This document shows, piece by piece, positions 6,266-17,791 of a stretch of 20,353 bases of DNA. The stretch comes from Steroidobacteraceae bacterium (GTDB lineage Bacteria; Pseudomonadota; Gammaproteobacteria; Steroidobacterales; Steroidobacteraceae): assembly GCA_035276085.1 (NCBI GenBank), contig DATELY010000001.1, positions 1-20,353 on the forward strand, in the 5' to 3' direction. Numbering within the stretch: position 1 is the first letter of the stretch; each line of letters begins with the position of its first letter. Under the pieces are notes generated by a model that made no database searches, was not told where the DNA came from, and was given only the letters and a program-made list of their open reading frames with translations. Made by a program: the position numbers and the translations under genes.

Positions 6266-6327
6266 TCAAGGAACACCACGCAGATGCCGAAGATGGACCT
6301 CGTCAAGAAGATTAGGGAATTCAAGGC

Positions 6328-9300
6328 ATGCTAGCAGCCCATCAATCGTTGCGACTAAGCGCCTCGGATCTCGTCGGCCATCTCAACTGCCGGCATCTGA
6401 CGGCCCTCGAGCTCGAGGCGACCAATGGAACGATCGAGCGCCCAACTTTCCGCGATCCATTGCTGGAAATCCTGTGGGAACGCGGCGCACTCCACGAACG
6501 CCAGTACGTGGACTATCTTGCGAAGGAAGGCTACGCGGTCATCCACATCGAGGGCGTTGGGATTACTCAGGAAGCTGTGCAGCAAACGCAGGCCGCGATG
6601 AAAGCAGGCACTGAGGTCATAGTACAGGCCGCGCTGTCTGGTGGACGCTGGGGCGGCCGGCCCGACATCCTCAGACGCGCCGCGGCACCAAGCGCGCTTG
6701 GGAATTGGTCGTACGAAGTCCTAGACACGAAGCTTGCGCGCGAGACTAGAGGCGGCACAGTCCTGCAACTCTGCCTCTATGCGGATCTTCTTGCCACCGC
6801 TCAGGGACTGTCGCCGGAGTACATGTATGTCGTGAAACCCGGTGCAACCTTTGAGCTGCAGCGCTTCCGGACAGCCAGCTACGAAGCGTACTACCGATAC
6901 GTCAAACGTAGTCTTGAACGTTCGCTTGAGGCCGGTGACGCGACATATCCGAACCCGAAGGAGCACTGCGAGATCTGCCGCTGGCGCATGCAGTGCAACC
7001 TCAAGCAACGGCACGATGACCACCTGTGCCTTGTCGCAGGAATCACGAAAATACAGATTGGTGAGCTCCAGCGCTACGGAATTCACACTGCCGCCGCGCT
7101 CGCACGGATGCCCGTCCCATTACAGTGGAAGCCTGAGCGAGGAGTACCTCAGTCCTACGAGCGATCGCGTGAGCAGGCGCGCGTCCAAGTCGCAGCTCGT
7201 ACGTCGGGGCACCCAATCTACGAGACCATCCCACCGGAGCCCGGGATCGGACTGGCTCGACTGCCGGAACCATCGCCTGGCGACATCTTCTTCGATCTCG
7301 AGGGCGATCCATTCGTGGGTGAGGGTGGCCTTGAATTCCTTTTCGGCTACCTATTCCTCAGCGAGAATGGCGAGCAGTCCCATGTCGGAGAGTGGGCCTT
7401 CAATCGCAATGACGAACAACGCGCCTTCGAGCGCTTTGTTGATTTCACAATGGCGCGCTGGTCGCGGCATCCCGCGATGCACGTCTACCACTATGCATCT
7501 TACGAACCAGGCGCACTGAAGCGCCTGATGGGACGTTACGCCACGCGAGAGGACGAAGTAGACCGCATGCTTCGTGGCGGCCTGTTTGTCGATCTCTACA
7601 CGATCGTGCGGCAAGGCATTCGCGCCAGTGTCGAGAGCTATTCGATCAAGAATCTGGAAGTTTTCTGTGGCTTCACTCGTAAGGTGCCACTCGCCGACGT
7701 GCGCCCTGCCCTCGCGACCGTGCAGGCCGCATTGGAGCTTGCAGACTTAGCACAGGTCAGCGAGCAGGATCGGGAGATCGTCGAAGCGTACAACCGAGAT
7801 GATTGCGCTTCTGCCCAGGCGCTGCGCAATTGGCTGGAGGCTGTTCGGGCAAAGCTGATCACGGAAAGGGCAACGATCGCGCGCCCCGCGGCCGAGTCTT
7901 CCGAGCCCACACAGGAAATCGGCGAGCGCCAGCAACAGATCGAAGCACTGGTCGCCAGACTGACGCAGGGTGTCCCAGCAGAAATCGAAGGTCGCACTGC
8001 CGAGCAGCAAGGCCGATGGATCCTGGCCTACACGCTGGATTGGCACCGGCGCGAGCTCAAGTCGGTCTGGTGGGAATACTTTCGGCTCTCCGACCTGACC
8101 GTAGATGACCTTCTCGACGAGCGTTCCGCACTCGCGGGACTAGAGTTCATCCAGGAGATTGGCGGCACGAAGAAGGCCCCGATTCATCGCTATCGCTTCC
8201 CGGCTCAAGACACCGATCTGAGACCAGGGGACACACTCTGCATGGTGGGTGGTGAAAATCTCGGTCGGATCGAAGCTGTCTCGTATGAGGATCGAACGAT
8301 CGACATCAAGAAGCGAATGGACACCGCATCCGTGCATCCGCAGGCGGTCTTCGAGCATGACCTCGTCGGCACCAATGAGCAGGCCGATGCGCTGATGCGG
8401 CTCGGCATGCATGTGGCGGAACATCGGATAGAAGGGGATGGTCCGTATCAAGCAGCGCGCGATCTGCTGCTGCGTCGGTCACCGGTTGTTTCCCCCGTAC
8501 GCCATGCTGGCGAGACAACGCTGGCTGCGGCGACTCGTCTGGCTCCGATGCTTTCCTCCGGCGTATTGCCCATCCAGGGGCCGCCGGGTGCGGGCAAAAC
8601 GTACACCGCCGCACGCATGATTTGCGAGCTGGTTCGAGCTCGAAAGAAAGTCGGAATCACCGCCAACAGTCACAAGGTCATTCGCAACCTACTAAATGAG
8701 GTCGTGAAAGCAGCTGATGATCTAAATGTCGATATCTCTTGCGTTCAGAAGCCCGGGGAGCCCGAAGAGGATGTTCATCGCATCCGGTTCGCCAGAAAGA
8801 ACGAGGATGTCTTCGCCGCACTCGCTGGGAATTGCGATGTTGCCGGCGGAACCTCGTGGCTCTGGGCGCGCAAAGAGGCATTTGAGTCGGTCGATGTTCT
8901 GTTCGTGGATGAAGCAGCGCAGATGTCTCTCGCGAACGTGCTTGCAGTGGCGCACGCATGCAAGACGCTCATTCTCGTGGGCGACCCACAGCAACTGGAG
9001 CAACCTACGAAGGGCAGCCACCCTGAAGGTACGGACGTATCGGCGCTGCATCATATGCTTGGCGGCAAACCAACCATTGAAGCCGAACAAGGTCTGTTCC
9101 TCGAGGAAACCTGGCGGCTACATCCTGCTATCTGCAAATTCACTTCCGAACTTTTCTACGAGGACAAACTTCGACCCCGTCCTGGCCTCGAGCGCCAAAC
9201 GATCCGTTCGACGCGAGCGAATGGATCAGGACTGCGTTTCTTTGCTGTGGCACACGAAGGCAACCAGAACTCAGCGCCCGAGGAAGCCGATCAGATTCGC

Positions 9301-9705
9301 GCAATTGTTGACGACATCCTCGGCACAAGGAGCACTTGGGTCGACGCGAAAGGCAAGGAGCTGCCGCTTGAGCCCACAGATCTCCTCATCATCGCACCCT
9401 ACAATGCGCAGGTCTTCGAACTTCAGGAGCGCCTACCTGCCTTTCGCGTTGGTACCGCCGACAAGTTCCAGGGCCAGGAAGCACCGATCGTGATCTATTC
9501 GATGACCACTTCCACTCACGCTGACGCCCCACGAGGGATGGAGTTTTTGTACAGCTTAAACCGATTGAACGTTGCAACGTCGCGAGCGAAGTGCCTATGT
9601 ATTCTCGTAGGGTCGCCGGCGCTGTTTGAACCCGAATGCAAGACGCCTGGGCAAATGGAATTAGCGAATGCGTTCTGCCGATATCTGGAGATGGCTACAA
9701 GCTAG
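6328..9705 (+). CDS. Nuclease-helicase fusion: Cas4/RecB-family PD-(D/E)xK nuclease with Fe-S cysteines + DnaQ/RNase-H-like domain + SF1B (Upf1/DNA2-like) helicase
   Basis: N-terminal nuclease motifs: GRPDIL (motif II), YEVLDTKLA (E-x-D-x-K motif III), QLCLYADLL (QhxxY). Cys ligands: one Cys in LNCRHLTALE plus CEICRWRMQC (C-x2-C-x5-C), the Cas4/AddB 4Fe-4S pattern. Mid-region DIFFDLEGDPF and YHYASYEPG resemble DnaQ-like exonuclease I/II motifs. C-terminal helicase: Walker A IQGPPGAGKTYTAA, Walker B VLFVDEAAQM, LILVGDPQQL, motif VI VATSRAKCLCILVG. Confidence 0.8.
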   Translation: MLAAHQSLRLSASDLVGHLNCRHLTALELEATNGTIERPTFRDPLLEILWERGALHERQYVDYLAKEGYAVIHIEGVGITQEAVQQTQAAMKAGTEVIVQAALSGGRWGGRPDILRRAAAPSALGNWSYEVLDTKLARETRGGTVLQLCLYADLLATAQGLSPEYMYVVKPGATFELQRFRTASYEAYYRYVKRSLERSLEAGDATYPNPKEHCEICRWRMQCNLKQRHDDHLCLVAGITKIQIGELQRYGIHTAAALARMPVPLQWKPERGVPQSYERSREQARVQVAARTSGHPIYETIPPEPGIGLARLPEPSPGDIFFDLEGDPFVGEGGLEFLFGYLFLSENGEQSHVGEWAFNRNDEQRAFERFVDFTMARWSRHPAMHVYHYASYEPGALKRLMGRYATREDEVDRMLRGGLFVDLYTIVRQGIRASVESYSIKNLEVFCGFTRKVPLADVRPALATVQAALELADLAQVSEQDREIVEAYNRDDCASAQALRNWLEAVRAKLITERATIARPAAESSEPTQEIGERQQQIEALVARLTQGVPAEIEGRTAEQQGRWILAYTLDWHRRELKSVWWEYFRLSDLTVDDLLDERSALAGLEFIQEIGGTKKAPIHRYRFPAQDTDLRPGDTLCMVGGENLGRIEAVSYEDRTIDIKKRMDTASVHPQAVFEHDLVGTNEQADALMRLGMHVAEHRIEGDGPYQAARDLLLRRSPVVSPVRHAGETTLAAATRLAPMLSSGVLPIQGPPGAGKTYTAARMICELVRARKKVGITANSHKVIRNLLNEVVKAADDLNVDISCVQKPGEPEEDVHRIRFARKNEDVFAALAGNCDVAGGTSWLWARKEAFESVDVLFVDEAAQMSLANVLAVAHACKTLILVGDPQQLEQPTKGSHPEGTDVSALHHMLGGKPTIEAEQGLFLEETWRLHPAICKFTSELFYEDKLRPRPGLERQTIRSTRANGSGLRFFAVAHEGNQNSAPEEADQIRAIVDDILGTRSTWVDAKGKELPLEPTDLLIIAPYNAQVFELQERLPAFRVGTADKFQGQEAPIVIYSMTTSTHADAPRGMEFLYSLNRLNVATSRAKCLCILVGSPALFEPECKTPGQMELANAFCRYLEMATS

Positions 9706-9817: not shown

Positions 9818-10430
9818 GGAATCACTCTTCCAATGGGATCTTTTCCTTCGGCTAGATGACGGCTCACCGGACCATGACGCACAATGCGACGCTGCGAGCT
9901 TCATCAAATAGCTAACGGCACGCGCAGCTCGCGAGATGTACTCGCATCAACGCAGCACTGAGACACACGCCATGCTTTCGCACGAAGCAGTTGCACACGT
10001 AATAAAGCGTGCTAATCTCCGCGCGTATTCATTGACACGCGGCCGCGCGCCGCACAACTGAAGCGAAACTGAAATGCTCTCCATCCACGGAACAGCCATG
10101 CAAAGCACGCTACGCGAATTAAATCGCGCCGCGGTCGGCTGCCCGTCGATTACGGGTAGCTGGTCACGGCCTGTCGCGAAAAATCATCGCGACTTCGGGA
10201 CCGAACTCGATCGGTAACCGCCTTTAGGGCTCTTTGCCCCCGAAGGCGCAAGCCGGACGGGGCACCCACGGGAGCCTAGCCACCTGAGATCCCTCTCAGA
10301 GTCGGCGAAAACCACCCAAAACAGTGTTCCGTCCGCGAGGTAAAGCCCTCGATACGGATTCGTACGCGCTACGCGTATGGACCCCTGCGCCGCACGTTCG
10401 GCCAGGACGCTGTTTAACAATCAGAAATTG

Positions 10431-10595
10431 ATCAGGGCTCTCACCCTGATTTCGCATTGCGCACTGAATTCTTCAGCGGCGCGGCACGCGCGCGCGTCGA
10501 ACACGCGGTGATGTGTTTGTGAAGTGGAGGGTGAGAGCCCGGAGCTGGTGAGAAATTTTTTGAAGCACGTGAAAGCGTGAGGGTCTCACTCGCTC
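10431..10595. repeat. Repeated/inverted motif AGGGYTCTCAC upstream of the tRNA array: hairpin ATCAGGG-CTCTCA-CCCTGAT (10431-10450), inverted copy GGGTGAGAGCCC (10529-10540), third direct copy GGGTCTCAC (10582-10590); also a (CG)5 tract
   Basis: Read directly. The 12-mer GGGCTCTCACCC and its exact reverse complement lie about 83 nt apart. A one-mismatch direct copy lies about 15 nt before the first tRNA. Confidence 0.5.
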
Positions 10596-10603
10596 TGAAA
10601 TTT

Positions 10604-10679
10604 GCGGATGTAGCTCAATTGGCAGAGCGCGAGTCTTCCAAACTCGAGGTCATGGGTTCGATCCCCATCGTCCGCCCCA
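10604..10679 (+). tRNA. tRNA-Gly (anticodon TCC), CCA encoded
   Basis: Cloverleaf: acceptor GCGGATG/CGTCCGC, D-arm TAGCTCAATTGGCAGAGC, anticodon stem CGAGT/ACTCG with loop CTTCCAA, T-arm ATGGG-TTCGATC-CCCAT, discriminator C, CCA. Confidence 0.85.
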
Positions 10680-10737
10680 GATTTCGATGCACGTTGCGAC
10701 TCTCATGCGAGTTGAACGTGTGCATCTTAGTTGATTC

Positions 10738-10814
10738 GCGGATGTAGTTCAGTCAGGCAGAACACGACGTCGCCAACGTCGAGGCCATGGGTTCGAGTCC
10801 CATCGTCCGCACCA
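10738..10814 (+). tRNA. tRNA-Gly (anticodon GCC), CCA encoded
   Basis: Same acceptor as the preceding Gly. Anticodon stem CGACG/CGTCG with loop TCGCCAA. T-loop TTCGAGT. Paralog of the upstream Gly gene. Confidence 0.85.
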
Positions 10815-10823
10815 CTCAAGTTT

Positions 10824-10908
10824 GCCGACGTGGTTGAACTGGCAGACACGCCAGCCCGAGGAGCTGGTAGCGAAAGCTTTGCCGGTTCGAGTCCGGCCGT
10901 CGGCACCA
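10824..10908 (+). tRNA. tRNA-Leu (anticodon GAG), class II, CCA encoded
   Basis: Acceptor GCCGACG/CGTCGGC. Anticodon stem CCAGC/GCTGG with loop CCGAGGA (unusual C32 C33). Long variable arm. T-arm GCCGG-TTCGAGT-CCGGC. Aligns with E. coli Leu-GAG architecture. Confidence 0.7.
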
Positions 10909-10948
10909 ATGTGTGATTTCGTTCGTTAAACCACATAAGGAGAATGTC

Positions 10949-12166
10949 ATGAGCCTCGAGGAAATGACGAAGATCGACAACCTGAAGTCATGGATCTCGG
11001 GTGTCGACATCGATTGGGACACGGTGAAGCAGCTGCGCAACATCGCGGAGCTGCCGATCCTCGCAGGTCACGTGGCCGTGATGCCGGACGTGCATCTCGG
11101 CAAGGGCGCAACTGTGGGATCGGTGATTCCGACCAAGGGCGCGATCATTCCGGCTGCGGTCGGCGTGGACATCGGCTGCGGTATGGCGGCCGTGCGCACG
11201 GAGATCTCCGCGAATCAGTTGCCGGACTCGCTGCGTCGACTGCGCTTGCGCATCGAAGAGCGTGTGCCGGTCGGATTCAACTCGCACGATCGACCGCTCA
11301 ATCCTCTGCACGATGGCTTGCGCGGGGTTGCACTGTCGAATGCCGGCAAGAAGATGGCGGAGCGGTACAACACGCTCAAGATCATGGACGTCATCGGCAA
11401 GCACGACCACAAGCGCACGTACAACCAGCTGGGAACGCTGGGCGGCGGCAACCACTTCATCGAGCTGTGTGTCGATGAGTCGAACGGCGTGTGGGTAATG
11501 CTTCACTCCGGCTCGCGCAACATCGGCAAGACGATCGGGGAGACGGCGATCCACATGGCGCGCCAGATTGCGGAACGCGAGGAGCGCGGGCTGCGTGACC
11601 GCGACCTTGCGTGGCTTGACGAAGGTTCGGCCGAGTTCGACATGTACGTCGAAGGCCTGCGCTGGGCGCAAGACTATGCGGCTCACAACCGCGCTTTGAT
11701 GATGCACGAGGTGCTGGTCGCGCTTCGTGAGGAGTTCGGGCGCGAGATCGCGATGTTCGAGAACGCAGTCCAGTGTCACCACAACTATGCATCGGTCGAA
11801 GAGCACTTCGGCCAACAGGTGTGGGTAACCCGCAAGGGCGCGGTATCGGCGCGTCGCGACGAGCTCGGCATCATCCCTGGCTCAATGGGTGCCAAGTCGT
11901 TCATCGTGCGCGGTAAGGGCAATGCAGATTCGTATTGCTCCTGCTCGCATGGCGCCGGTCGTCGCCTCTCTCGCGGCGCTGCGAAGCGGACTTACACGCT
12001 CGCGGATCTGAAGAGGCAGACGGAAGGCGTCGAGTGCCGCAAGGACGAAGGCGTGCTCGATGAGATCCCGGGCGCCTACAAGGACATCGATATGGTCATG
12101 GCTGCGCAGGCCGACCTCGTCGACGTCGTACATACCTTGAAGCAAGTGATGTGCATCAAGGGTTGA
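10949..12166 (+). CDS. rtcB: RtcB-family 3'-phosphate/5'-hydroxyl RNA ligase
   Basis: RBS AAGGAGA 5 nt before ATG 10949. The ORF track's 10913 start lacks an RBS. Hallmark RtcB motifs: LGTLGGGNHFIEL, AVQCHHNYA (GMP-histidine region), CSCSHGAGRR, and the metal-binding-type HLGKGATVGS. Confidence 0.9.
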   Translation: MSLEEMTKIDNLKSWISGVDIDWDTVKQLRNIAELPILAGHVAVMPDVHLGKGATVGSVIPTKGAIIPAAVGVDIGCGMAAVRTEISANQLPDSLRRLRLRIEERVPVGFNSHDRPLNPLHDGLRGVALSNAGKKMAERYNTLKIMDVIGKHDHKRTYNQLGTLGGGNHFIELCVDESNGVWVMLHSGSRNIGKTIGETAIHMARQIAEREERGLRDRDLAWLDEGSAEFDMYVEGLRWAQDYAAHNRALMMHEVLVALREEFGREIAMFENAVQCHHNYASVEEHFGQQVWVTRKGAVSARRDELGIIPGSMGAKSFIVRGKGNADSYCSCSHGAGRRLSRGAAKRTYTLADLKRQTEGVECRKDEGVLDEIPGAYKDIDMVMAAQADLVDVVHTLKQVMCIKG

Positions 12167-12212
12167 TGTCTCTTCGAGGGTTGGGTGTACGGATGCACCC
12201 GACTCTCACTCT

Positions 12213-12365
12213 GCACCGGTAGCTCAATTGGTATGGTCGAGACCATTTCCGTTGGTCGGAGTTGCGGTTTCGCCGCTCCTGCGCGTCCATGCGCCCGCGG
12301 CATTCGCACATCCGTGTGCAGCACAAAACCGCCTGTTGGGGGTTCGAGTCCCTCCCGGTGTGCCA
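12213..12365 (+). tRNA. Aberrant 153-nt tRNA-like locus: 5' acceptor + D-arm start (GCACCGG TA GCTCAATTGGTA...) and 3' T-arm/acceptor/CCA (GGGGG-TTCGAGT-CCCTC CCGGTGT G CCA) separated by about 85 nt of extra hairpin-rich sequence; isotype undetermined
   Basis: Acceptor halves pair (GCACCGG/CCGGTGT with G1-U72). T-loop TTCGAGT and CCA are canonical. No standard anticodon arm was found by eye. A possible anticodon stem GCGGT...ACCGC flanks a roughly 55-nt insert. Confidence 0.4.
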
Positions 12366-12379
12366 CTTTTTCAAATGAT

Positions 12380-12464
12380 CCGTTCCTGGCGGAACTGGTA
12401 GACGCGCTGGGCTCAGAACTCAGTGTCTTCGGACATCCCGGTTCGACTCCGGGGGAACGGACCA
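12380..12464 (+). tRNA. tRNA-Leu (anticodon CAG), class II, CCA encoded
   Basis: Acceptor CCGTTCC/GGAACGG. D-arm TGGCGGAACTGGTAGACGCG as in E. coli Leu. Anticodon stem CTGGG/CTCAG with loop CTCAGAA. Variable arm GTGTC-TTCG-GACAT. T-arm CCCGG-TTCGACT-CCGGG. Confidence 0.8.
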
Positions 12465-12482
12465 CAACATCGTCTGATCTAC

Positions 12483-12694
12483 GCGGGCGTAGCGGAAAAG
12501 GTAAACGCGACCCTAAAACGTGAAGAGGGAAAGCCGAAGAGGCTACGCGGGTAATCAGCCGAGGCACGTGGTTGCGGATGCACCGAATGGCTACGCGAGT
12601 GGTCGCCAGGGAAGCGCGTTTCCAAGCCGACGCTGTCTTCGAGTAATGATCGGAGTTCCGCGATGTGCAGGTTCGAATCCTGTCGCCCGCACCA
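12483..12694 (+). tRNA. Aberrant 212-nt tRNA-like locus: 5' GCGGGCG TA GCGG... and 3' GCAGG-TTCGAAT-CCTGT CGCCCGC A CCA with perfectly complementary acceptor strands separated by about 135 nt; insert contains GGCTACGCG(G/A)G repeated three times
   Basis: Canonical T-arm, discriminator and CCA at the 3' end. A perfectly complementary 7-nt acceptor partner lies 200 nt upstream. Too short for a group I intron. Could be an interrupted or intron-containing tRNA, or a pseudogene plus fragment. Confidence 0.3.
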
Positions 12695-12710
12695 ATACTT
12701 CTTGAGCCGT

Positions 12711-12798
12711 GCGCTCCTGGTTGGAACTGGAAGACACGCCGCGCTTAAAACGCGGTGCTCATTCGAGCGTGCCGGTTCGAATCCGGCGGAGCGCACCA
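12711..12798 (+). tRNA. tRNA-Leu (anticodon TAA), class II, CCA encoded
   Basis: Acceptor GCGCTCC/GGAGCGC. Anticodon stem CCGCG/CGCGG with loop CTTAAAA. Variable arm GCTC-ATTC-GAGC. T-arm GCCGG-TTCGAAT-CCGGC. Confidence 0.85.
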
Positions 12799-12814
12799 CT
12801 GGTTCGATTCTTTC

Positions 12815-12900
12815 GCGTCCCTGGTTGGAATTGGAATACACGCTGCGCTCAAAACGCAGTGCCTTCGGGCATGCCGGTTCGAATCCGGCGGGACGCACCA
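12815..12900 (+). tRNA. tRNA-Leu (anticodon CAA), class II, CCA encoded
   Basis: Paralog of the preceding Leu-TAA (same D-arm and T-arm). Anticodon stem CTGCG/CGCAG with loop CTCAAAA. Variable arm TGCC-TTCG-GGCA. Confidence 0.85.
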
Positions 12901-12908
12901 GTTTCTGC

Positions 12909-12985
12909 GGATCGTTAGCTCAATTGGCCAGAGCATCCGGTTCTTACCCGGCAGGTTGAAGGTTCGATTCCTTCACGGTCCACCA
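12909..12985 (+). tRNA. tRNA-Lys (anticodon CTT), CCA encoded
   Basis: Acceptor GGATCGT/ACGGTCC. Anticodon stem TCCGG/CCGGC (27-43 mismatch) with loop TTCTTAC. T-loop TTCGATT. Confidence 0.75.
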
Positions 12986-13001
12986 ACATCACCTTGTGCA
13001 G

Positions 13002-13076
13002 GGGCGTGTAGCTCAAGGGTTAGAGCATCCGGCTTTTAACCGGACGGCGAGGGTTCGATCCCCTCCGCGCCCACCA
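13002..13076 (+). tRNA. tRNA-Lys (anticodon TTT), CCA encoded
   Basis: Acceptor GGGCGTG/CGCGCCC. Anticodon stem TCCGG/CCGGA with loop CTTTTAA. T-arm GAGGG-TTCGATC-CCCTC. Confidence 0.85.
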
Positions 13077-13078
13077 CT

Positions 13079-13152
13079 TGGGGCTTCGTCTAGCGGCAGG
13101 ACATCGCGCTTTGAACGCGAGAACTCAGGTTCGAACCCTGGAGCCCCAGCCA
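13079..13152 (+). tRNA. tRNA-Gln (anticodon TTG), CCA encoded
   Basis: U1-A72 acceptor TGGGGCT/AGCCCCA (a Gln hallmark). Anticodon stem TCGCG/CGCGA with loop CTTTGAA. T-loop TTCGAAC. Discriminator G. Confidence 0.85.
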
Positions 13153-13167
13153 CACGCGATTGCGAAT

Positions 13168-13243
13168 GCCACGTTAACTCAGCGGCCAGAGTGCTCGCCT
13201 GTCTAGCGAGAAGTCACGGGTTCGAATCCCGTACGTGGCGCCA
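13168..13243 (+). tRNA. tRNA-Asp (anticodon GTC), CCA encoded
   Basis: Acceptor GCCACGT/ACGTGGC. Anticodon stem CTCGC/GCGAG with loop CTGTCTA. T-arm ACGGG-TTCGAAT-CCCGT. Discriminator G. Confidence 0.85.
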
Positions 13244-13249
13244 GATCAC

Positions 13250-13325
13250 GCACCGATAGCTCAGCTGGTAGAGCGCCTGGTTGAAGCCCAGGAGGCCGCA
13301 GGGTCGAAACCTGCTCGGTGCACCA
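13250..13325 (+). tRNA. tRNA-Phe (anticodon GAA), CCA encoded, atypical T-loop GTCGAAA and G37
   Basis: Acceptor GCACCGA/TCGGTGC. Anticodon stem CCTGG/CCAGG with loop TTGAAGC. T-stem GCAGG/CCTGC with loop GTCGAAA (G at position 54). Confidence 0.7.
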
Positions 13326-13335
13326 CTTTCATCGT

Positions 13336-13411
13336 TGGCCAGTAGCTCAGTTGGCAGAGCACTCCGCTGTTACCGGAGCCGTCACAGGTTCGAGTCCTGT
13401 CTGGCCAGCCA
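13336..13411 (+). tRNA. tRNA-Asn (anticodon GTT), CCA encoded
   Basis: Acceptor TGGCCAG/CTGGCCA (U1-A72). Anticodon stem CTCCG/CGGAG with loop CTGTTAC. T-arm ACAGG-TTCGAGT-CCTGT. Confidence 0.8.
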
Positions 13412-13445
13412 CATCTTTTGAATAGCGAACCAAGAGGAGAACGCG

Positions 13446-13688
13446 ATGACTTCGATCAAAGAGATGGTGGCGAACGGCCGCAAAGTTCGATTCACGCACT
13501 ACAAGTCCGGTGAGCTCTGGTACGAGACGGAGTGCGGATTCGCATTCCCTGTACCGACCGCGGATGCAGGCGACGGATGTTTCCTAGCTGAAGACAAGGC
13601 GCTGCTGTTCATGCGCTACATCAGGAAGCACAAAGAGGTGCTCGATCACGCGCGTGCTGACGCTGAGTCCGCCGACCAACAGCCATAG
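13446..13688 (+). CDS. Hypothetical small protein (80 aa) embedded in the tRNA array
   Basis: Strong RBS AAGAGGAGA 6 nt before ATG 13446. ORF sits in an otherwise tRNA-only interval. No recognisable motif. Followed by a hairpin-rich repeat. Confidence 0.5.
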   Translation: MTSIKEMVANGRKVRFTHYKSGELWYETECGFAFPVPTADAGDGCFLAEDKALLFMRYIRKHKEVLDHARADAESADQQP

Positions 13689-13695
13689 GTGAAGT

Positions 13696-13917
13696 CCCTT
13701 TACGCGAGGTCCCGAAGGCCCGGCCTCGCGAGAGCTCGGAACTCACTCTTGGGACACACGGGACGCGCGCGAACACGCGCGTTCGGGCCGCACTGATTCG
13801 ACGCTTTGACCAGGCCCTTTGCGCGAGAGTCCACCGCCCCAACCTCGCGAGGAGCATAGATACGCCTCCTTGGGACGAACGGGAACGCCGCAGATTCTGC
13901 GGTCAGTACTCGGGGCC
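13696..13917 (+). repeat. Tandem direct repeat, two copies of a roughly 100-nt element (copy A 13696-13789, copy B 13815-13917, period about 119 nt) with conserved blocks CCCTTTRCGCGAG / CCTCGCGAGRAGC / CTTGGGACRMACGGGA / CGGGCC and hairpins at matching positions built from different sequence
   Basis: Read directly. First hairpin CGCGAGG...CCTCGCG in both copies. Second hairpin ACGCGCG-CGAACA-CGCGCGT in A versus CCGCAG-ATT-CTGCGG in B. Same position, different sequence, which suggests a conserved RNA or DNA structure. Confidence 0.5.
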
Positions 13918-13928
13918 CCAACACACTC

Positions 13929-14003
13929 GCACGTATAGCTCAGCGGGAGAGCGCCGCTCTTACAAAGCGGAAGTCCTTGGTTCAATCCCAAGTGCGTGCG
14001 CCA
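13929..14003 (+). tRNA. tRNA-Val (anticodon TAC), CCA encoded
   Basis: Acceptor GCACGTA/TGCGTGC. Anticodon stem CCGCT/AGCGG with loop CTTACAA. T-arm CTTGG-TTCAATC-CCAAG. Confidence 0.85.
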
Positions 14004-14009
14004 CTTCAT

Positions 14010-14087
14010 GCGACGTTAGCTCAGATGGAACAGAGCGCCGGTTTGCGATGCCGGAGGCCGAAGGTTCAAGTCCTTCACGTCGCACCA
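14010..14087 (+). tRNA. tRNA-Arg (anticodon GCG), CCA encoded
   Basis: Acceptor GCGACGT/ACGTCGC. Anticodon stem CCGGT/GCCGG with loop TTGCGAT. T-arm GAAGG-TTCAAGT-CCTTC. Confidence 0.75.
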
Positions 14088-14094
14088 CATGTTC

Positions 14095-14171
14095 GCTCTC
14101 ATCGTCTAGTTGGACCAGGACACCTCCCTCTCACGGAGAAGACTGGAGTTCGAATCTCCATGAGAGCGCCA
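14095..14171 (+). tRNA. tRNA-Glu (anticodon CTC), CCA encoded
   Basis: Acceptor GCTCTCA/TGAGAGC. Glu-type D-arm TCGTCTAGTTGGACCAGGACA. Anticodon stem CCTCC/GGAGA (27-43 mismatch) with loop CTCTCAC. T-arm TGGAG-TTCGAAT-CTCCA. Confidence 0.8.
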
Positions 14172-14176
14172 CTGTT

Positions 14177-14255
14177 CGTTCCCGTCGTCTAGCCCGGCTC
14201 AGGACGCCGCCCTTTCAAGGCGAGAACACGAGTTCGAATCTCGTCGGGAACACCA
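14177..14255 (+). tRNA. tRNA-Glu (anticodon TTC), CCA encoded
   Basis: Acceptor GTTCCCG/CGGGAAC. Anticodon stem CCGCC/GGCGA with loop CTTTCAA. T-arm ACGAG-TTCGAAT-CTCGT. Confidence 0.8.
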
Positions 14256-14287
14256 ACCACGCGCGCATCTGGCGCGTACGAATTGAT

Positions 14288-14362
14288 TGGGAAGTCGTCT
14301 AACCGGCAGGACAGCGGACTCTGACTCCGCGAATGTGGGTTCGAGCCCTACCTTCCCAACCA
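14288..14362 (+). tRNA. tRNA-Gln (anticodon CTG), CCA encoded
   Basis: U1-A72 acceptor TGGGAAG/CTTCCCA. Anticodon stem GCGGA/TCCGC with loop CTCTGAC. T-arm GTGGG-TTCGAGC-CCTAC. Confidence 0.8.
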
Positions 14363-14378
14363 ACGCAAAGCTCACGAT

Positions 14379-14456
14379 GGTGGCGTTAGCTCAGTCGGTC
14401 AGAGTCCCGAGCTGTGAACTCGGAGGTCGTGGGTTCGAACCCCACACGTCGCCCCA
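14379..14456 (+). tRNA. tRNA-His (anticodon GTG) with encoded G-1 and C73, CCA encoded
   Basis: Extra 5' G before acceptor GTGGCGT pairs with discriminator C, the bacterial His hallmark. Anticodon stem CCGAG/CTCGG with loop CTGTGAA. T-arm GTGGG-TTCGAAC-CCCAC. Closely resembles E. coli tRNA-His. Confidence 0.85.
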
Positions 14457-14464
14457 ACTTCAAC

Positions 14465-14540
14465 GCCGAGATAGCTCAGCAGGCAGAGCAGCTGCTTCGT
14501 AAGCAGCATGTGGTCGGTTCGACTCCGACTCTCGGCTCCA
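14465..14540 (+). tRNA. tRNA-Thr (anticodon CGT), CCA encoded
   Basis: Acceptor GCCGAGA/TCTCGGC. Anticodon stem GCTGC/GCAGC with loop TTCGTAA. T-arm GTCGG-TTCGACT-CCGAC. Discriminator T. Confidence 0.85.
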
Positions 14541-14551
14541 TACTCTTGATC

Positions 14552-14639
14552 GCACTCGTGGCCGAGCGGCTGAAGGCGCCGGACTGCAATTCCGGTGAGC
14601 ACATGCTCCACGTCAGTTCGAATCTGACCGAGTGCTCCA
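14552..14639 (+). tRNA. Class II (long variable arm) tRNA with Cys anticodon GCA and U73 discriminator; Ser-like D-arm (TGGCCGAGCGGCTGAAGGC)
   Basis: Perfect acceptor GCACTCG/CGAGTGC. 3-bp D-stem GCC/GGC with a Ser-type D-loop. Anticodon stem CCGGA/TCCGG with loop CTGCAAT. 16-nt variable arm TGAGCACATGCTCCAC (GAGCA/TGCTC stem). T-arm GTCAG-TTCGAAT-CTGAC. T73, CCA. Confidence 0.65.
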
Positions 14640-14650
14640 CTCTCTTCTTC

Positions 14651-14729
14651 AGGGACTTAGCGCAGCCTGGTCAGCGCACCTGCCTTGGGCGGAGGGGGGT
14701 CGCGAGTTCGAATCTCGCAGTCCCTACCA
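14651..14729 (+). tRNA. tRNA-Pro (anticodon TGG), CCA encoded
   Basis: Acceptor AGGGACT/AGTCCCT. D-arm TAGCGCAGCCTGGTCAGCGC like E. coli Pro. Anticodon loop CTTGGGC (G37), stem with one mismatch, irregular variable region. T-arm GCGAG-TTCGAAT-CTCGC. Confidence 0.65.
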
Positions 14730-14737
14730 TTTTCATT

Positions 14738-14814
14738 CTCGATGTAGCTCAGCTTGGCAGAGCGCTTCGTTCGGGACGAAGAGGCCGCGCGTTCGAGTCG
14801 CGCCATCGAGACCA
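14738..14814 (+). tRNA. tRNA-Pro (anticodon CGG), CCA encoded
   Basis: Acceptor CTCGATG/CATCGAG. Anticodon stem CTTCG/CGAAG with loop TTCGGGA. T-arm GCGCG-TTCGAGT-CGCGC. Very similar to E. coli proK. Confidence 0.85.
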
Positions 14815-14827
14815 CTTTTTCTTCTAT

Positions 14828-14904
14828 GGCCGCTTAGCTCAATTGGCGAGAGCGCTCGACCGATAATCGAGAGGTTGCTGGTTCGAGTCCAGCAGCGGCT
14901 ACCA
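14828..14904 (+). tRNA. tRNA-Ile (anticodon GAT) with unusual C33, CCA encoded
   Basis: Acceptor GGCCGCT/AGCGGCT (G1-U72). Anticodon stem CTCGA/TCGAG with loop CCGATAA. T-arm GCTGG-TTCGAGT-CCAGC. Confidence 0.7.
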
Positions 14905-14914
14905 ACGTTCCACT

Positions 14915-14991
14915 GGGCCTGTAGCTCCAACTGGCAGAGCGCCTGCCTTGCAAGCAGGACGGTGCGAGTTCGAATCTCGCCAGGTCCACCA
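14915..14991 (+). tRNA. tRNA-Ala (anticodon TGC) with G3-U70, CCA encoded
   Basis: Acceptor GGGCCTG/CAGGTCC carries the G3·U70 alanine identity pair. Anticodon stem CCTGC/GCAGG with loop CTTGCAA. T-arm GCGAG-TTCGAAT-CTCGC. Confidence 0.85.
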
Positions 14992-14996
14992 TCTTC

Positions 14997-15073
14997 CGTG
15001 CAGTGGCGAAGCGGCCTAACGCACCGGTCTCATAAGCCGGTCATCGATGGTTCGAATCCATCCTGCACGACCA
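14997..15073 (+). tRNA. tRNA with CAT anticodon (elongator Met or lysidine-Ile; not initiator-like), CCA encoded
   Basis: Acceptor CGTGCAG/CTGCACG with C1-G72 paired. 3-bp D-stem. Anticodon loop CTCATAA. No GGG/CCC run in the anticodon stem. T-arm GATGG-TTCGAAT-CCATC. Confidence 0.75.
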
Positions 15074-15105: not shown

Positions 15106-15678
15106 ATGAGTCCGCATATTCTCGCGCTCGACGTCGCCGGCGCTCCGCACCGGTGGATCAACGTTCGTACCGCTGCACACTACTACGCGACCGACATGAT
15201 CGCGTGGGCTGCCGGCGCGAGCGAGTTCACGCTGCGTGGTGGCACTCAGCGCTCGACGGGTTTGCAGTCACTCATTCGTGCGAGTTCGATCGTCGCCATC
15301 AAGGGCAAGGACTTCATCGTCCGCCACTTCGATCAGGTGCCGACGCTCACGAAGGAGATGCTGCTCGCTCGCGATCGATATCTGTGTTCGTACTGCGCGC
15401 AGCGGTTTCGCTTCGAGCAGCTCGACATGGAGCACATCGTGCCGCGCTCAAAGGGCGGCGAGGATTCCTGGATGAACCTCGTCGCCGCGTGCAAGGCGTG
15501 CAACAACCGTAAGGCCAACCGCACGCCGGAGGCTGCCGGCATGAAGCTGCACTACGTACCGTATGTACCGAACCGGTACGAGGCCTTCATCTTGAGCAAC
15601 CGCAAGATCCTGGCGGACCAGATGGAGTTTCTGCTCCAGGGTGTGCCGAAGGGCTCTCGAATGCACTTGAACGCCTAG
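15106..15678 (+). CDS. HNH endonuclease (190 aa)
   Basis: RBS AAAGGAGGAG 6 nt before ATG 15106. Classic HNH/zinc-finger motif CSYCAQRF...MEHIVPRSKGGEDSWMNLVAACKACNNRK (C-x2-C...H...N...C-x2-C-N). Confidence 0.85.
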   Translation: MSPHILALDVAGAPHRWINVRTAAHYYATDMIAWAAGASEFTLRGGTQRSTGLQSLIRASSIVAIKGKDFIVRHFDQVPTLTKEMLLARDRYLCSYCAQRFRFEQLDMEHIVPRSKGGEDSWMNLVAACKACNNRKANRTPEAAGMKLHYVPYVPNRYEAFILSNRKILADQMEFLLQGVPKGSRMHLNA

Positions 15679-15710: not shown

Positions 15711-15759
15711 GCCGTACACCACTTACAACCAAACTGACACAATGAGACAGGAGGGCCCA

Positions 15760-17097
15760 ATGGAAGAGAAAACATTCTTGAGCAAGCTGGGCTCTCGCCT
15801 CTTCGCTCATCCCGGCTTTGAGAATCTCGTGGCGCTTTCAACCAGCGCCAACGGCTTCAGGCGGGAGGATGCCGTACGCCGACTTGGGATGCTGGGCGAC
15901 CCACGAGCGATCCCTTGCCTGATTGTTCGCGCCAACGATTGGGTTCCTCAGGTTCGGACGGCTGCATTCGATGCATTGATCCGAATGCTCAAGTCTGGAA
16001 ACGGCGATGCGTTCGTTACTTCACTGCCGCAGATCCTTCACCTGCAGAGCTGCAGCCGCGGCGATCACACCGAGCTGCTAGCGGCGATTCGTGAGTTTCT
16101 GCTGCGTGAGCAGAACCGAAGCGCTCTTCTCGCCGGAATGGAGAATCGAGACAGCCGTGTAGCAAGGCTCGTTACTCGCTTAGTGGTCGATCACCAGTTG
16201 ATGGCGCCTGCCGAGCTTGTGACGAAGGGTCTGGCACACAGCGATGTGCTTGTCCGGTCCATCATCGTGGATCTTTTGCAGCGGCTGACTCAGGACGAGT
16301 TCGAGACGTTGGCTGACAGGGTTCTCGGAGACACCTACATGCCAGTACGTCGCGAAGCGTTCCAACAGCTTCTGCGGCGGATGCCGGGACGGGGTACGGT
16401 AGCCGCACGGAATCTTTTGTTCGACCGATCCGCGTCGATCCGAGAGATAGCTGTTCAACACCTCCTTGCTCAGGGCGAGTCTGTCGATGAGATCTATGCC
16501 AGTGCGCTGGCAAGGAACGGCGGTCACGCAGCAACAGTCAGATGCGTGCTGTGGGGTTGGGCGCTGATGAACAATCAGGCTCGCGCTGTGCAGGTTGAGC
16601 AATTTCTCGTTTCACCTGTTCCGGCGATCCGTCGCGCTGCCCTGTCCTCAATTGGACGGCTTCTGCGCACAGCGGCAGGCCCGCATCTCGAGAAGGGTCT
16701 CGGAGATGCGTCCCCTGCTGTATGCAACGAAGCAGCTAGATTGATCAGCAGAATCGGTGTTTCCCCCGGCATCGAAACTCTCATGGCGATTGCTACTTCG
16801 AGTGGCCTTGCTCATGTTGCCTACGCTTGCTGTCGCGTAGCCCGCGACGGCAACAAGTGGAACTGGCTGAGGTTCATCCTGGGCGTGTATGGCCGCTCCG
16901 CGTGCGAGATCTCATCGGAAGTTTTCTCAAGAGAGATCGACGCGTGGGAGTGGCAGTTCAACCGCAGCTACGCACAACCGGATCCGCATCAGTTGGCGGA
17001 AGTCGTGCAGTTGTTTGCAGCCTCCCGAGATCGGCTCTCGACGGGGCGCGTTCAACTACTGGCGTTCACGCTCCGAACTTACGGTGGTGCCGTATGA
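15760..17097 (+). CDS. HEAT-repeat (PBS-lyase-type) protein, about 445 aa
   Basis: RBS AGGAGGG 6 nt before ATG 15760. The track's 15742 start lies 18 nt upstream in frame. Repeated DxxVRxxAxxALGxLGDPRAIPxL-type units (EDAVRRLGMLGDPRAIPCLIVRANDWVPQVRTAAFDALIRML; AIRRAALSSIGRLL) typical of HEAT/PBS-lyase repeats. Confidence 0.65.
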   Translation: MEEKTFLSKLGSRLFAHPGFENLVALSTSANGFRREDAVRRLGMLGDPRAIPCLIVRANDWVPQVRTAAFDALIRMLKSGNGDAFVTSLPQILHLQSCSRGDHTELLAAIREFLLREQNRSALLAGMENRDSRVARLVTRLVVDHQLMAPAELVTKGLAHSDVLVRSIIVDLLQRLTQDEFETLADRVLGDTYMPVRREAFQQLLRRMPGRGTVAARNLLFDRSASIREIAVQHLLAQGESVDEIYASALARNGGHAATVRCVLWGWALMNNQARAVQVEQFLVSPVPAIRRAALSSIGRLLRTAAGPHLEKGLGDASPAVCNEAARLISRIGVSPGIETLMAIATSSGLAHVAYACCRVARDGNKWNWLRFILGVYGRSACEISSEVFSREIDAWEWQFNRSYAQPDPHQLAEVVQLFAASRDRLSTGRVQLLAFTLRTYGGAV

Positions 17098-17321: not shown

Positions 17322-17394
17322 TGCAATGTAGCTCAGTGGGTAGAGCAAGCAGCTCATAACTGCTCGGTCGAGGGTTCGACTCCCTCTATTGCGA
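17322..17394 (+). tRNA. tRNA-Met-like (anticodon CAT) without encoded CCA and with a weak acceptor stem (two G·U pairs including 1-72); possibly a host or degenerate copy
   Basis: Good D-arm TAGCTCAGTGGGTAGAGCA. Anticodon stem AGCAG/CTGCT with loop CTCATAA. T-arm GAGGG-TTCGACT-CCCTC. Acceptor TGCAATG/TATTGCG is imperfect. It is the only tRNA here not followed by CCA. Confidence 0.5.
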
Positions 17395-17427
17395 CGACTT
17401 TGCCAAGTCGTACTGGTAAGGCCTCAC

Positions 17428-17459
17428 GGCCCGGGGTTCGACTCCCCCTGTGGATGCCA
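17428..17459 (+). other. Orphan 3' tRNA fragment (T-arm CGGGG-TTCGACT-CCCCC + acceptor 3' strand TGTGGAT + G + CCA) with no 5' partner; candidate att-site remnant
   Basis: T-loop consensus and terminal CCA are present, but no complementary 5' acceptor or D/anticodon arms upstream. Preceded by the hairpin ACGACT-TGCCA-AGTCGT. Confidence 0.4.
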
Positions 17460-17491: not shown

Positions 17492-17791
17492 ATCCGAGGC
17501 GCCTCAGCGATCCCTGATCTCGCTCTCGCAAGTGGGCGGGCTCACATCGCAGCGCGTACCACGCTCTGCGCATCGATGCTCTGCGTGCACCCGATCCAGC
17601 GAAGAACACAGTCGAAGAAGCGTGCGTGCCAGGGAGGCGCGCACGATGACGGCCGTATACGCGCCGGTGAGGACACGACGACCGCGATGCCCGTGCGGTA
17701 GGTGCGGGGCGGCTTCGGACCTTTTTGGACGCCGCCGCTGGATGGGCCAGCGGCGGCATTTGGGCGAGTGAAAGAAGTAAGGAGGACGAAA

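Follow-up and report, generated by a model that had tools for sequence, protein, structure and literature searches.

The locus raises the question of why so many tRNA genes stand together in a gammaproteobacterial genome, and whether they belong to a mobile island or to the genes around them. In the window (the whole 20,353-nt stretch analysed), ARAGORN called 25 tRNA genes on the forward strand between positions 10604 and 15073 and one more farther downstream (Table 1), and all 26 scored 43 to 72 bits against the Rfam tRNA model (gathering score 29). The original prediction of a one-strand array with 17 amino acid specificities and a CCA end on every gene was borne out for these 25 intact genes, while the downstream gene lacks CCA. 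It had counted about 27 genes; the other two are interrupted genes, here A and B, missed by both ARAGORN and Rfam. Three tRNA genes lie between a leader and rtcB, and 22 intact and 2 disrupted genes between rtcB and an HNH gene. Spacers measure 2 to 58 nt rather than the predicted 2 to 90 nt, barring three gaps of 1471, 246, and 517 nt, which hold rtcB and A, B, and an 80-aa open reading frame (orf80) with a 240-nt spacer, respectively. No periodic repeat was found in the array. Identity reaches 85% between Leu(UAA) and Leu(CAA) and 82% between Gly(UCC) and Gly(GCC), against an all-pair median of 62%, so these are paralogous pairs; the predicted kinship of these neighbors stands, but not the claim that mainly the anticodon differs, as 15% to 18% of positions do.

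Table 1. Features of the locus, in order of position
Feature	Coordinates	Strand	Basis or remark
Shango defence system, sngA-sngB-sngC	470..6265	+	PADLOC, Pfam
1125-aa protein gene: PD-(D/E)XK nuclease, RNase H-like domain, SF1 helicase	6328..9705	+	Pfam, PADLOC
Conserved structured non-coding leader, ~540 nt	10061..10603	+	8 distinct loci, RNAalifold
tRNA-Gly(UCC), Gly(GCC), Leu(GAG)	10604..10908	+	Between leader and rtcB; ARAGORN, Rfam
rtcB, RNA 3'-phosphate/5'-hydroxyl ligase, 405 aa	10949..12166	+	Pfam, PHROG, structure alignment
A, interrupted tRNA-Trp(CCA)	12213..12365	+	Inserts removed in silico
tRNA-Leu(CAG)	12380..12464	+	ARAGORN, Rfam
B, rearranged tRNA-like pseudogene	12483..12694	+	Sequence comparison
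tRNA-Leu(UAA), Leu(CAA), Lys(CUU), Lys(UUU), Gln(UUG), Asp(GUC), Phe(GAA), Asn(GUU)	12711..13411	+	ARAGORN, Rfam
orf80, 80 aa, phage family of unknown function	13446..13688	+	PHROG
tRNA-Val(UAC), Arg(GCG), Glu(CUC), Glu(UUC), Gln(CUG), His(GUG), Thr(CGU), Cys(GCA), Pro(UGG), Pro(CGG), Ile(GAU), Ala(UGC), Met(CAU)	13929..15073	+	ARAGORN, Rfam
tRNA-Cys(GCA), 88 nt	14552..14639	+	ARAGORN, structure inspection
HNH endonuclease gene	15106..15678	+	Pfam HNH_5/HNH
HEAT-repeat protein gene	15742..17097	+	Pfam HEAT_2/HEAT
b7a tRNA-like gene; hairpin and T-arm-like minihelix	17322-17395; 17396-17450	+	ARAGORN, conserved layout
SPFH/Band-7 protein gene	17702..18937	+	Pfam Band_7, E=2.1e-36

The original prediction overlooked rtcB, and with it the setting of the array: its tRNA genes lie within an RNA-repair operon of rtcB, HNH, and HEAT, with the small phage-family orf80 interleaved. 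The rtcB product matches Pfam RtcB over its full length (E=4.9e-127) and phrog_1075 (E=3.4e-143), and alignment to solved RtcB structures shows that it has the metal- and GMP-binding His/Cys motifs. In the relatives L257 and L258, the operon runs leader-rtcB-HNH-HEAT with 0 tRNA genes, the HNH gene starting 42 nt after rtcB in L257, and HNH and rtcB co-occur in 10 further distinct loci. The HNH gene, which had been taken as a sign of a mobile island, thus belongs to the rtcB operon even where tRNA genes are absent. The HEAT gene is third in the operon in some relatives and is missing from L003, L244, and L249. The leader lies directly 5' of the first tRNA gene in the window and directly 5' of rtcB in the tRNA-free relatives, conserved and structured in either setting. 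The RNAalifold prediction comprises 19 helices and 149 pairs, 93.6% of cells being paired. Both partners vary in 21 of these pairs, whereas shuffles gave 9.9 +/- 2.2 (0 of 500 reached 21) and slid controls 1 to 11; invariant G-U pairs fix the strand of the leader. It had no Rfam match, and its motif was not found in IMG/VR. No sigma-70-like and no convincing sigma-54 promoter was detected, and the region has no excess of terminator-like signals. Judging from the arrangement of the genes, the array is probably co-transcribed with the RNA-repair operon.

Downstream, the tRNA-like gene has a CAU anticodon and is of the band-7-associated (b7a-tRNA) type described in bioRxiv 10.1101/312249. Its layout, followed by a hairpin and a T-arm-like tail, is conserved 5' of SPFH genes beside rtcB in many Proteobacteria, and the feature at 17428 once proposed as an att remnant is this tail. 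SPFH/Band-7 homologues with at least 250 aligned residues were identified in about 17 other rtcB-anchored loci.

We compared operons whose rtcB is 78% to 94% identical to the window copy. Because tRNA genes at matching slots number 0 in L257, 1 in L244, 2 in L249, 14 in L003, and at least 25 in L255, the array is an accessory insertion, gained and then decaying by deletion, truncation, and insertion. L244 retains a deleted version of B, and L003 holds truncated remnants beside its 14 genes. L255 and L256 keep the gene order of the window, their tRNAs matching those of the window at 69% to 97% identity (mean 83%), and the 18 anticodons common to L255 and the window keep their cloverleaf in both. 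Three environmental contigs are 99.6% to 99.9% identical and differ at only three tRNA positions outside the leader, B, and Leu(GAG) (5 differences in L002). The prediction of an accessory, transferable or phage-like array was therefore upheld by the range of tRNA load, by the phage-type genes adjoining the L255 copy, and by the jumbo-phage family of orf80. The L003 array, by contrast, sits among ordinary chromosomal genes (TonB-receptor, isochorismatase, MarR, and glyoxalase).

The array matches the published class of L-arrays, or tRNA-array units, and is a further example rather than a new kind of element. L-arrays hold up to 43 genes, are non-periodic and supernumerary, spread by horizontal transfer, and have HNH and rtcB as recurrent neighbors (PMC8421152). 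[quoted passage not shown] PCC 7120 and its like (Santamaria-Gomez et al. 2021, PMC8421152) at least 20 co-oriented tRNA genes, short spacers, non-periodicity, patchy distribution, some pseudogenes, an adjoining HNH gene, and rtcB as a recurrent or co-regulated neighbor. Unlike in Anabaena, rtcB lies inside the array, the tRNA genes fill slots of a pre-existing leader-rtcB-HNH-HEAT operon, and the host is a gammaproteobacterium. The Anabaena-type direct-repeat promoter (PMC8421152) was not identified at the window array, where the structured leader precedes the unit. Among 242 rtcB-anchored loci, 25 had at least 4 tRNA genes. The locus also resembles the RtcB/Band-7/b7a-tRNA repair system, with which we grouped the Salmonella rsr-yrlBA-rtcBA operon for comparison: as that system is outlined in bioRxiv 10.1101/312249 (and, through it, Burroughs & Aravind 2016), an SPFH/Band-7 gene is found in linkage with rtcB, and a tRNA-like gene of variable anticodon without CCA lies 5' of the Band-7 gene. 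It differs in having 22 true tRNA genes, HNH, and HEAT between rtcB and the b7a/Band-7 pair, and no Rsr, RtcA, or RtcR gene was seen in the window.

We consider it quite likely (probability about 0.75) that a long L-array has been inserted into an RNA-repair operon on the chromosome of an uncultured Steroidobacteraceae-like gammaproteobacterium, is probably co-transcribed with that operon, and furnishes a reserve tRNA pool together with a ligase. The operon consists of the structured leader, rtcB, HNH, and HEAT, followed by the b7a-tRNA and the Band-7 gene. A single long transcript would begin at the leader or ahead of it, and mature tRNAs, for which CCA addition would be unnecessary, would be freed by RNase P and 3' trimming. 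These tRNAs, presumably supernumerary to the host set, could serve as a reserve when the housekeeping pool runs out or when toxins, colicins, or phage or defence anticodon nucleases cut it in the anticodon loop, and RtcB from the same transcript could reseal tRNAs with 2',3'-cyclic-phosphate or 3'-phosphate and 5'-OH ends. Spread or recombination of the unit may be aided by the HNH protein, which could alternatively act in the repair pathway. We infer that this co-transcribed pool plus ligase for cleaved tRNAs is the most likely function. In Anabaena, translational stress co-induces the array and rtcB, and 23 of the 26 array tRNAs are charged, the other 3 being pseudogenes (PMC8421152).

The array tRNAs might instead act mainly as decoys or sensors, absorbing anticodon nucleases while their cleaved halves, ending in 2',3'-cyclic phosphate, induce an Rtc response. 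The rtcB/b7a-tRNA/Band-7 setting accords with this, and a comparable role has been proposed for b7a-tRNA and YrlA tRNA mimics; operonic tRNAs of Anabaena, some of them stress-cleaved, have been suggested as a sponge (PMC8421152), and the accounts of Salmonella drawn on here propose halves of damaged tRNAs as RtcR activators (PMC7790460, PMC10159003). At a mean divergence of about 17%, however, the array tRNAs still have complete cloverleaves, CCA ends, and identity elements (G-1/C73 in His; U73 and GCA in Cys), which argues for aminoacylation, and an RtcR gene was not seen in the window. We regard a chiefly decoy or sensor role as possible but unlikely.

Somewhat less likely still is that the array has no function and is the decaying leftover of an earlier transfer, riding with a useful rtcB operon. 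Weighing against the favored reading, array loss and decay in L003, L244, L249, and L257 show weak or episodic selection, a pattern that also fits a nearly neutral passenger, and the two disrupted genes of the window, the truncated or deleted genes of L003, L244, and L249, and the absence of the array from close relatives point the same way. Against a functionless remnant stand the 25 genes that score as full tRNAs, the shared anticodons that stayed cloverleaf-competent in L255 and the window, and the few tRNA differences among the environmental contigs.

An improbable reading is that the array is present cargo of a prophage or integrative element, with Shango, HNH, and the supposed att remnant marking a mobile island. 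A defence-like operon had been predicted beside the array and proved to be Shango (PADLOC: SngA 2e-108, SngB 9.7e-183, SngC 1.1e-274; Pfam: TerB_N/TerB_C, BrxC_BrxD, DEAD), a neighbor outside the array unit that is not present in L003. The 1125-aa protein gene between them, whose helicase part resembles MkoA, is likewise a neighbor and, from its domains, a candidate defence gene. Cargo status is favored by orf80, which matches phrog_20427 (E=4.6e-31), has homologues in the phage collection only in genomes of 344 to 385 kb, and recurs at the equivalent array position in L255. The arrays of L255 and L256 adjoin phage-type genes (phrog ribonucleotide-reductase TSCPD, exonuclease), although the phage-type assignment of L255 consists of three PHROG matches without structural genes. 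RtcB with large tRNA sets is also frequent in large phages (phiCbK-like, BcepSaruman/Sauron, pf16, and cluster C mycobacteriophages; IMG/VR L126, with 37 tRNAs), and 698 phage records, including phiCbK, BcepSaruman, and mycobacteriophages, have an RtcB homologue. The window RtcB is, however, only 50% to 60% identical to phage copies, and the 20 kb contain neither an integrase or recombinase gene nor att repeats nor genes for phage structural proteins. GC in 1-kb windows is 0.58 to 0.63 over the array and 0.55 to 0.63 over the whole window, without a step at the array. The tRNA-free operons with HNH and HEAT, the b7a-tRNA tail, and the chromosomal surroundings of the L003 array also weigh against cargo status. 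Acidithiobacillus arrays are located on a defined integrative element, whereas the window shows no visible element boundaries. The likeness to these arrays and to those of Mycobacterium (chromosome, plasmid, and phage), cited in PMC8421152 and PMC5966550, lies in large size, supernumerary content, and horizontal acquisition.

Genes A and B are most plausibly genes damaged in array turnover rather than intron-bearing ones. B joins a Tyr-like 5' part to a 3' end with T arm, acceptor strand, and CCA around about 128 nt of foreign interior, of which 12501-12590 is homologous to the L249 spacer downstream of rtcB. L244 keeps a 52-nt deleted version with identical ends, and 9 of the 17 differences between the window and L001 fall in 12560-12607, inside B. 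A carries inserts of 25 nt in the D loop (12234-12258) and 52 nt in the anticodon loop (12272-12323). Its being a genuine intron-containing gene, its inserts excised by an endonuclease and its exons joined by the adjacent RtcB, would mean enzymatic tRNA splicing in a bacterium. A starts 46 nt past rtcB, is the sole Trp gene of the array, retains all exon nucleotides, yields a perfect 76-nt tRNA-Trp with canonical U33 once both inserts are removed in silico, and reaches a cloverleaf-compatible fold only about 4 kcal/mol above the minimum free energy. Splicing is nonetheless very improbable: no BHB motif forms; no group I signature, ribozyme, or other Rfam family was matched; the inserts are confined to one lineage, the L003 and L255 orthologues being uninterrupted; homologues of the inserts were sought elsewhere and none found, so no covariation test is possible; the neighboring B is demonstrably a rearrangement scar; and the window encodes no splicing endonuclease. 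We know of no bacterial splicing endonuclease.

That the array is the housekeeping tRNA operon of the organism is hardly tenable, for although many isoacceptors fit abundant codons (for 16 amino acids, the codon used most often has its tRNA in the array), intact Ser, Tyr, and Trp genes are absent, several codon boxes are uncovered, and about 74% of local codons are readable, so that it cannot be the sole tRNA set, and it is reduced or absent in close relatives.

The tRNA-Cys(GCA) of the array has class II architecture: its acceptor and T stems are 7/5, its D stem has 3 bp, its variable arm forms a stem-loop, and position 73 is U. Long-variable-arm tRNA-Cys genes recur in L163, L122/L123, L109, and L129/L229.

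ARAGORN called 25 tRNA genes in the array and 1 further gene beginning at 17322, and the Rfam tRNA model supported all of these calls, scoring them at 43-72 bits where the gathering score is 29. CCA is encoded by all 25 array genes, as originally predicted, and not by the gene at 17322; the 17 amino acids and the anticodons listed in that prediction were likewise recovered by both tools. Its figure of about 27 genes is reached only if 2 interrupted tRNA-like genes, a tRNA-Trp and a gene with a Tyr-like 5' part, are added to the 25 intact ones; both were missed by ARAGORN and Rfam and found by a T-arm/acceptor scan. ARAGORN's intron mode, run on arrays, mostly fused adjacent tRNAs into false "intron" genes, and only its call for the Tyr-like gene was usable. 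The expected spacing of 2-90 nt was seen for 21 of the 24 spacers (2-58 nt), the other 3 measuring 1471, 246, and 517 nt. Paralogy of adjacent genes was recovered for Leu(UAA)/Leu(CAA) and Gly(UCC)/Gly(GCC), with 85% and 82% identity against an all-pair median of 62%, but the differences run along the entire molecule and are not mainly in the anticodon; because both pairs also occur in the related array of contig L255, the duplications are old. The array is non-periodic, with no tandem array detected by TRF between 10000 and 15200, generic tRNA similarity only in the repeat comparison, and no step in GC content. It provides a tRNA for the commonest codon of 16 amino acids and can read approximately 74% of the codons used by genes in the window. 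With this coverage and no intact Ser, Tyr, or Trp genes, the array cannot stand alone, and a second tRNA set must exist.

Features of the window and long-arm tRNA-Cys copies in other rtcB-linked arrays
Feature	Position	Description
Predicted Shango system: SngA (TerB), SngB (ATPase), SngC (helicase)	470-6265	one operon; PADLOC 2e-108, 9.7e-183, 1.1e-274
1125-aa protein gene		after Shango; PD-(D/E)XK nuclease, RNase H-like domain, SF1 helicase
Leader	10061-10603	non-coding, + strand
tRNA array	10604-15073	+ strand
rtcB	10949-12166	full length, within 1471-nt gap; Pfam RtcB E=4.9e-127; phrog_1075 E=3.4e-143
Interrupted tRNA-Trp(CCA)	12213-12365	46 nt after rtcB; 25-nt D-loop insert and 52-nt anticodon-loop insert
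Rearranged Tyr-like gene	12483-12694	
orf80		80 aa, in 517-nt gap; phrog_20427
Long-arm tRNA-Cys(GCA)	14552-14639	88 nt, class II; stem-loop variable arm
HNH endonuclease gene	15106-15678	downstream of array
HEAT-repeat gene	15742-17097	downstream of HNH
b7a-tRNA (band-7-associated tRNA-like gene)	17322-17395	weak A/U-rich acceptor stem, without CCA, anticodon CAU
Hairpin and T-arm-like minihelix	17396-17450	directly after b7a-tRNA
SPFH/Band-7 gene	17702-18937	after b7a-tRNA
Long-arm tRNA-Cys copies	L163:4240-4327; L122:7226-7311; L109:2871-2952; L129:3362-3443	

The product of rtcB is an RtcB ligase by its full-length domain and its conserved metal- and GMP-binding His/Cys motifs; alignment to the solved structures 2epg and 1uc2 recovered PDVH, GVDIGCG, GNHF, HSGSR, HHN, and SHGAGR, which we take to be the catalytic motifs. 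Homologues of orf80, the small reading frame inside the array, were found in the phage collection only in genomes of 344-385 kb (e.g., XacN1, GAP32, CBB, and RsoM2USA), and since the XacN1 homologue is not adjacent to tRNA genes, it gives no clue to the function of orf80. The region after orf80 (13689-13928) contains 2 copies of an approximately 40-nt repeat that are 73% identical and lie 119 nt apart; both copies include a CGCGAG...CTCGCG hairpin, and the region is only partly conserved in L255.

To place the array among its relatives, we compared operons whose rtcB is 78-94% identical, including contigs fetched for RtcB proteins at 85-93% identity, and found between 0 and at least 25 tRNA genes per operon. 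The window, itself a metagenome contig, shares 99.6-99.9% identity with the ENA contigs L001 and L002; among genomes, a Steroidobacteraceae MAG (L003) comes closest, its RtcB being 94% identical. On a 223-kb chromosomal contig (L257/L258), leader, rtcB, HNH, and HEAT follow each other within tens of nucleotides with 0 tRNA genes, and the last three form a tight operon (L257:10001-13196) with gaps of 42 and 15 nt; this arrangement suggests a joint function of HNH and HEAT with RtcB, and a role for HNH beyond that of a homing device. Contig L248 carries rtcB, a truncated HNH gene, and a tRNA-like gene, L244 has 1 tRNA gene (Asp) plus fragments, L249 has 2 tRNA genes, and L003 has 14 together with several visibly truncated ones, its array neighboring TonB-receptor, isochorismatase, MarR, and glyoxalase genes. 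In L255/L256 the count reaches at least 25, and these contigs share with the window the order Gly-Gly-...-Leu-rtcB-Trp-Leu-...-Lys-Lys-Gln-Asp-Phe-Asn-orf80-...-Val-Arg-...-Glu-Glu-Gln, with tRNAs of matching anticodon 69-97% identical (mean 83%); the contigs also adjoin genes matching phage families (ribonucleotide-reductase TSCPD proteins and 5'-3' exonuclease). This graded series marks the tRNA genes as an accessory load in 2 slots of a pre-existing operon, the leader/rtcB and rtcB/HNH intervals, a load that was gained, is common to a phage-like element, and was eroded through deletion.

By its structure, the array fits the published class of L-arrays, which are long, non-periodic, supernumerary, and horizontally spread arrays of up to 43 genes with a conserved HNH endonuclease gene and a recurrent rtcB as neighbors (Santamaria-Gomez et al., PMC8421152). 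It has tens of same-strand genes at operon-like distances, is non-periodic and patchy or horizontal in occurrence, and is linked to HNH and rtcB. As a member of a class already known, it is a gammaproteobacterial addition that is ordinary though instructive. It differs from the published arrays in that rtcB sits within the array and that the tRNA genes are placed inside a leader-rtcB-HNH-HEAT operon adjoining a b7a/Band-7 module. Arrays adjacent to rtcB were also identified in Rhodoferax (L064), Blastocatellia (L078), and viral contigs; 25 of 242 rtcB-anchored loci carry 4 or more tRNA genes, the viral contigs among them reaching as many as 37, and an RtcB homologue is encoded in 698 phage records. 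The main value of the present case lies in near-identical operons with 0, 1, 2, 14, 25, and at least 25 tRNA genes, a series that gives a picture of the stepwise entry of a long tRNA array into an rtcB repair operon and its later erosion, and that links the array physically to tRNA repair, beyond phage codon supply.

The original prediction of a mobile or accessory island was sound in taking the array to be accessory and phage-related, as the graded relatives and the phage-family neighbors of L255/L256 bear out, and in placing it beside a defense system; it overlooked the rtcB operon, and its element boundary did not hold up. No integrase, recombinase, flanking att repeats, or structural or transfer genes were found in the window, nor any repeats flanking the array, and on these grounds it is not assigned to a prophage or integrative element. 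The presumed att remnant is the tail of the b7a-tRNA and not an attachment site. The layout of this tRNA-like gene, a type described here after Burroughs & Aravind 2016 as summarized in bioRxiv 10.1101/312249, is kept directly upstream of SPFH genes beside rtcB in many Proteobacteria, and the window itself has the tRNA-like gene directly upstream of Band-7/SPFH with rtcB nearby. We found 10 other loci with a tRNA-like gene upstream of Band-7/SPFH in an rtcB neighborhood, all without CCA and with varying anticodons; the "anticodon" is free to vary (CAU, CAG, GAA, UCG, CGU, AAA, UUU, AAU, and UAG), with CAG replacing CAU in the L003 orthologue. Upstream of the array, the predicted defense operon was identified as a complete Shango system by very strong PADLOC matches, and the helicase part of the following 1125-aa protein resembles Mokosh MkoA. 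The whole block (470-9705) is absent from L003, which makes it a variable defense island abutting the rtcB locus.

The arrangement of the genes suggests that the array, rtcB, and their neighbors form a single transcription unit, since the genes all point the same way, terminator-like sites are not in excess, and the leader is attached with or without tRNA genes. A sigma-70 scan returned 0 sites, and a sigma-54 pattern search returned 31 matches against 36 expected, which is at chance level. We make no claim for a weak TGGCGC-N-GC site noticed near 17264 on visual inspection. Encoded CCA ends, identity elements still in place (G-1/C73 for His, U73 and GCA for Cys), and cloverleaves kept across approximately 17% mean divergence argue that the array tRNAs are processed and charged. 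In Anabaena, translational stress co-induces the array and rtcB, and 23 of 26 array tRNAs are charged, with 3 pseudogenes (PMC8421152). On the simplest reading, array and ligase would together "replace and repair" the tRNAs of a damaged pool as one module, with RtcB joining 3'-phosphate (or 2',3'-cyclic-phosphate) ends to 5'-OH ends. That the tRNAs instead serve as decoys or signals is a live alternative, as is an array in near-neutral decay.

Besides this replace-and-repair reading, 3 features are leads worth following up: the leader RNA, the long-arm tRNA-Cys, and a tRNA-Trp split in 2 loops beside a splicing-type ligase. The leader, 540 nt of sequence upstream of the first tRNA gene, is conserved in 8 distinct loci, including relatives without tRNA genes (L257). 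Its consensus fold comprises 19 helices with 93.6% of cells paired, and 21 pairs change on both sides, compared with 9.9 +/- 2.2 in shuffled alignments (0/500) and 1-11 in slid controls; indels delete or lengthen entire hairpins, and the strand is established by G-U pairs that do not vary. No Rfam family matches the leader, an exact-motif scan of IMG/VR returned none, and a covariance model of its 3' domain found no members beyond the close clade, with weak matches in L216, L253, and L254 only. We consider the leader probably, at roughly 3 chances in 5, a genuine structured RNA class ahead of an RNA-repair/tRNA operon, a novelty both more probable and less radical than splicing of the interrupted tRNA-Trp.

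The interrupted Tyr-like gene was at first read as a tRNA-Tyr with a 128-nt intron, a reading we rejected. Homology links its interior to the spacer that follows rtcB in L249, a 52-nt deletion variant with identical termini occurs in L244, and the substitutions are clustered: of the 17 differences that separate the window from L001, a contig 99.9% identical to it, 9 fall in 48 nt (12560-12607). These 3 observations together identify the gene, on comparison with its relatives, as a rearrangement scar; its spacer-derived interior also sets it apart from the archaeal/eukaryal enzymatic introns with their bulge-helix-bulge. The substitution cluster has the appearance of a patch of micro gene conversion or recombination between short repeats inside the gene (CTACGCG...).

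In the tRNA-Trp, all exon nucleotides are intact, and in-silico deletion of both inserts yields a perfect tRNA-Trp(CCA); the orthologues after rtcB in L003 and L255 are intact tRNA-Trp genes. BLAST of the inserts against 259 loci found no homologues, and they are unique to the window's lineage. By analogy with the Tyr-like scar, the tRNA-Trp is most simply taken to be a recently disrupted gene. We regard it as very improbable that the gene is functional, its transcript being cut by an endonuclease and rejoined by the co-encoded RtcB; if true, a bacterium would be splicing a tRNA enzymatically in the archaeal/eukaryal style. The constrained fold is a three-way junction with no 3-4-3 bulge-helix-bulge, and the minimum free energy folds of the tRNA-Trp (z=-1.3) and the Tyr-like gene (z=-0.5) are not better than shuffles. 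An Rfam search over both genes (12160-12720) at E<=10 identified no intron or ribozyme family, and the Intron_gpI model had no match in either at E<=10, so that neither is classed as group I, with L083 (53 bits) and L105 (61.5 bits) as positive controls. The group-I-interrupted tRNA genes of these 2 phage loci (L083:15611-15917 and L105:7329-7603), which the T-arm/acceptor scan also recovered, lie on viral contigs that encode RtcB too.

The tRNA-Cys(GCA) of the array combines a long variable arm with 7/5 acceptor/T stems, a 3-bp D stem, and U73. In known selC* tRNA-Cys and allo-tRNAs, the acceptor/T stems measure 8/4 or 9/3 and the D stem is long and Sec-like (PMC5389517), and the window gene is therefore not one of them by its stems; a 7/5 tRNA-Cys with a long arm did not turn up in our literature search. 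The same type was identified in 4 other independent rtcB-linked arrays, 3 of them viral, and its stems covary from copy to copy: of 21 predicted pairs, 12 persist despite changes on both sides. This U73, GCA tRNA recurs in phage and in bacterial arrays independent of one another, which prompts the question whether its identity is Cys or Ser. Other unusual tRNA bodies and anticodons were observed in the compared arrays. At an orthologous array position, L249:9460-9535 joins a GUC (Asp) anticodon to a body of Asn type in which one pair of the anticodon stem is broken, and L255:11440-11517 encodes Arg(ACG) after Val(UAC), where the window and L003 have Arg(GCG). Class II bodies with class I anticodons were found in L088:3426-3513, an 88-nt long-arm Lys(UUU), and in L130:5038-5128, a 91-nt Asp(GUC) with a Leu-like body.
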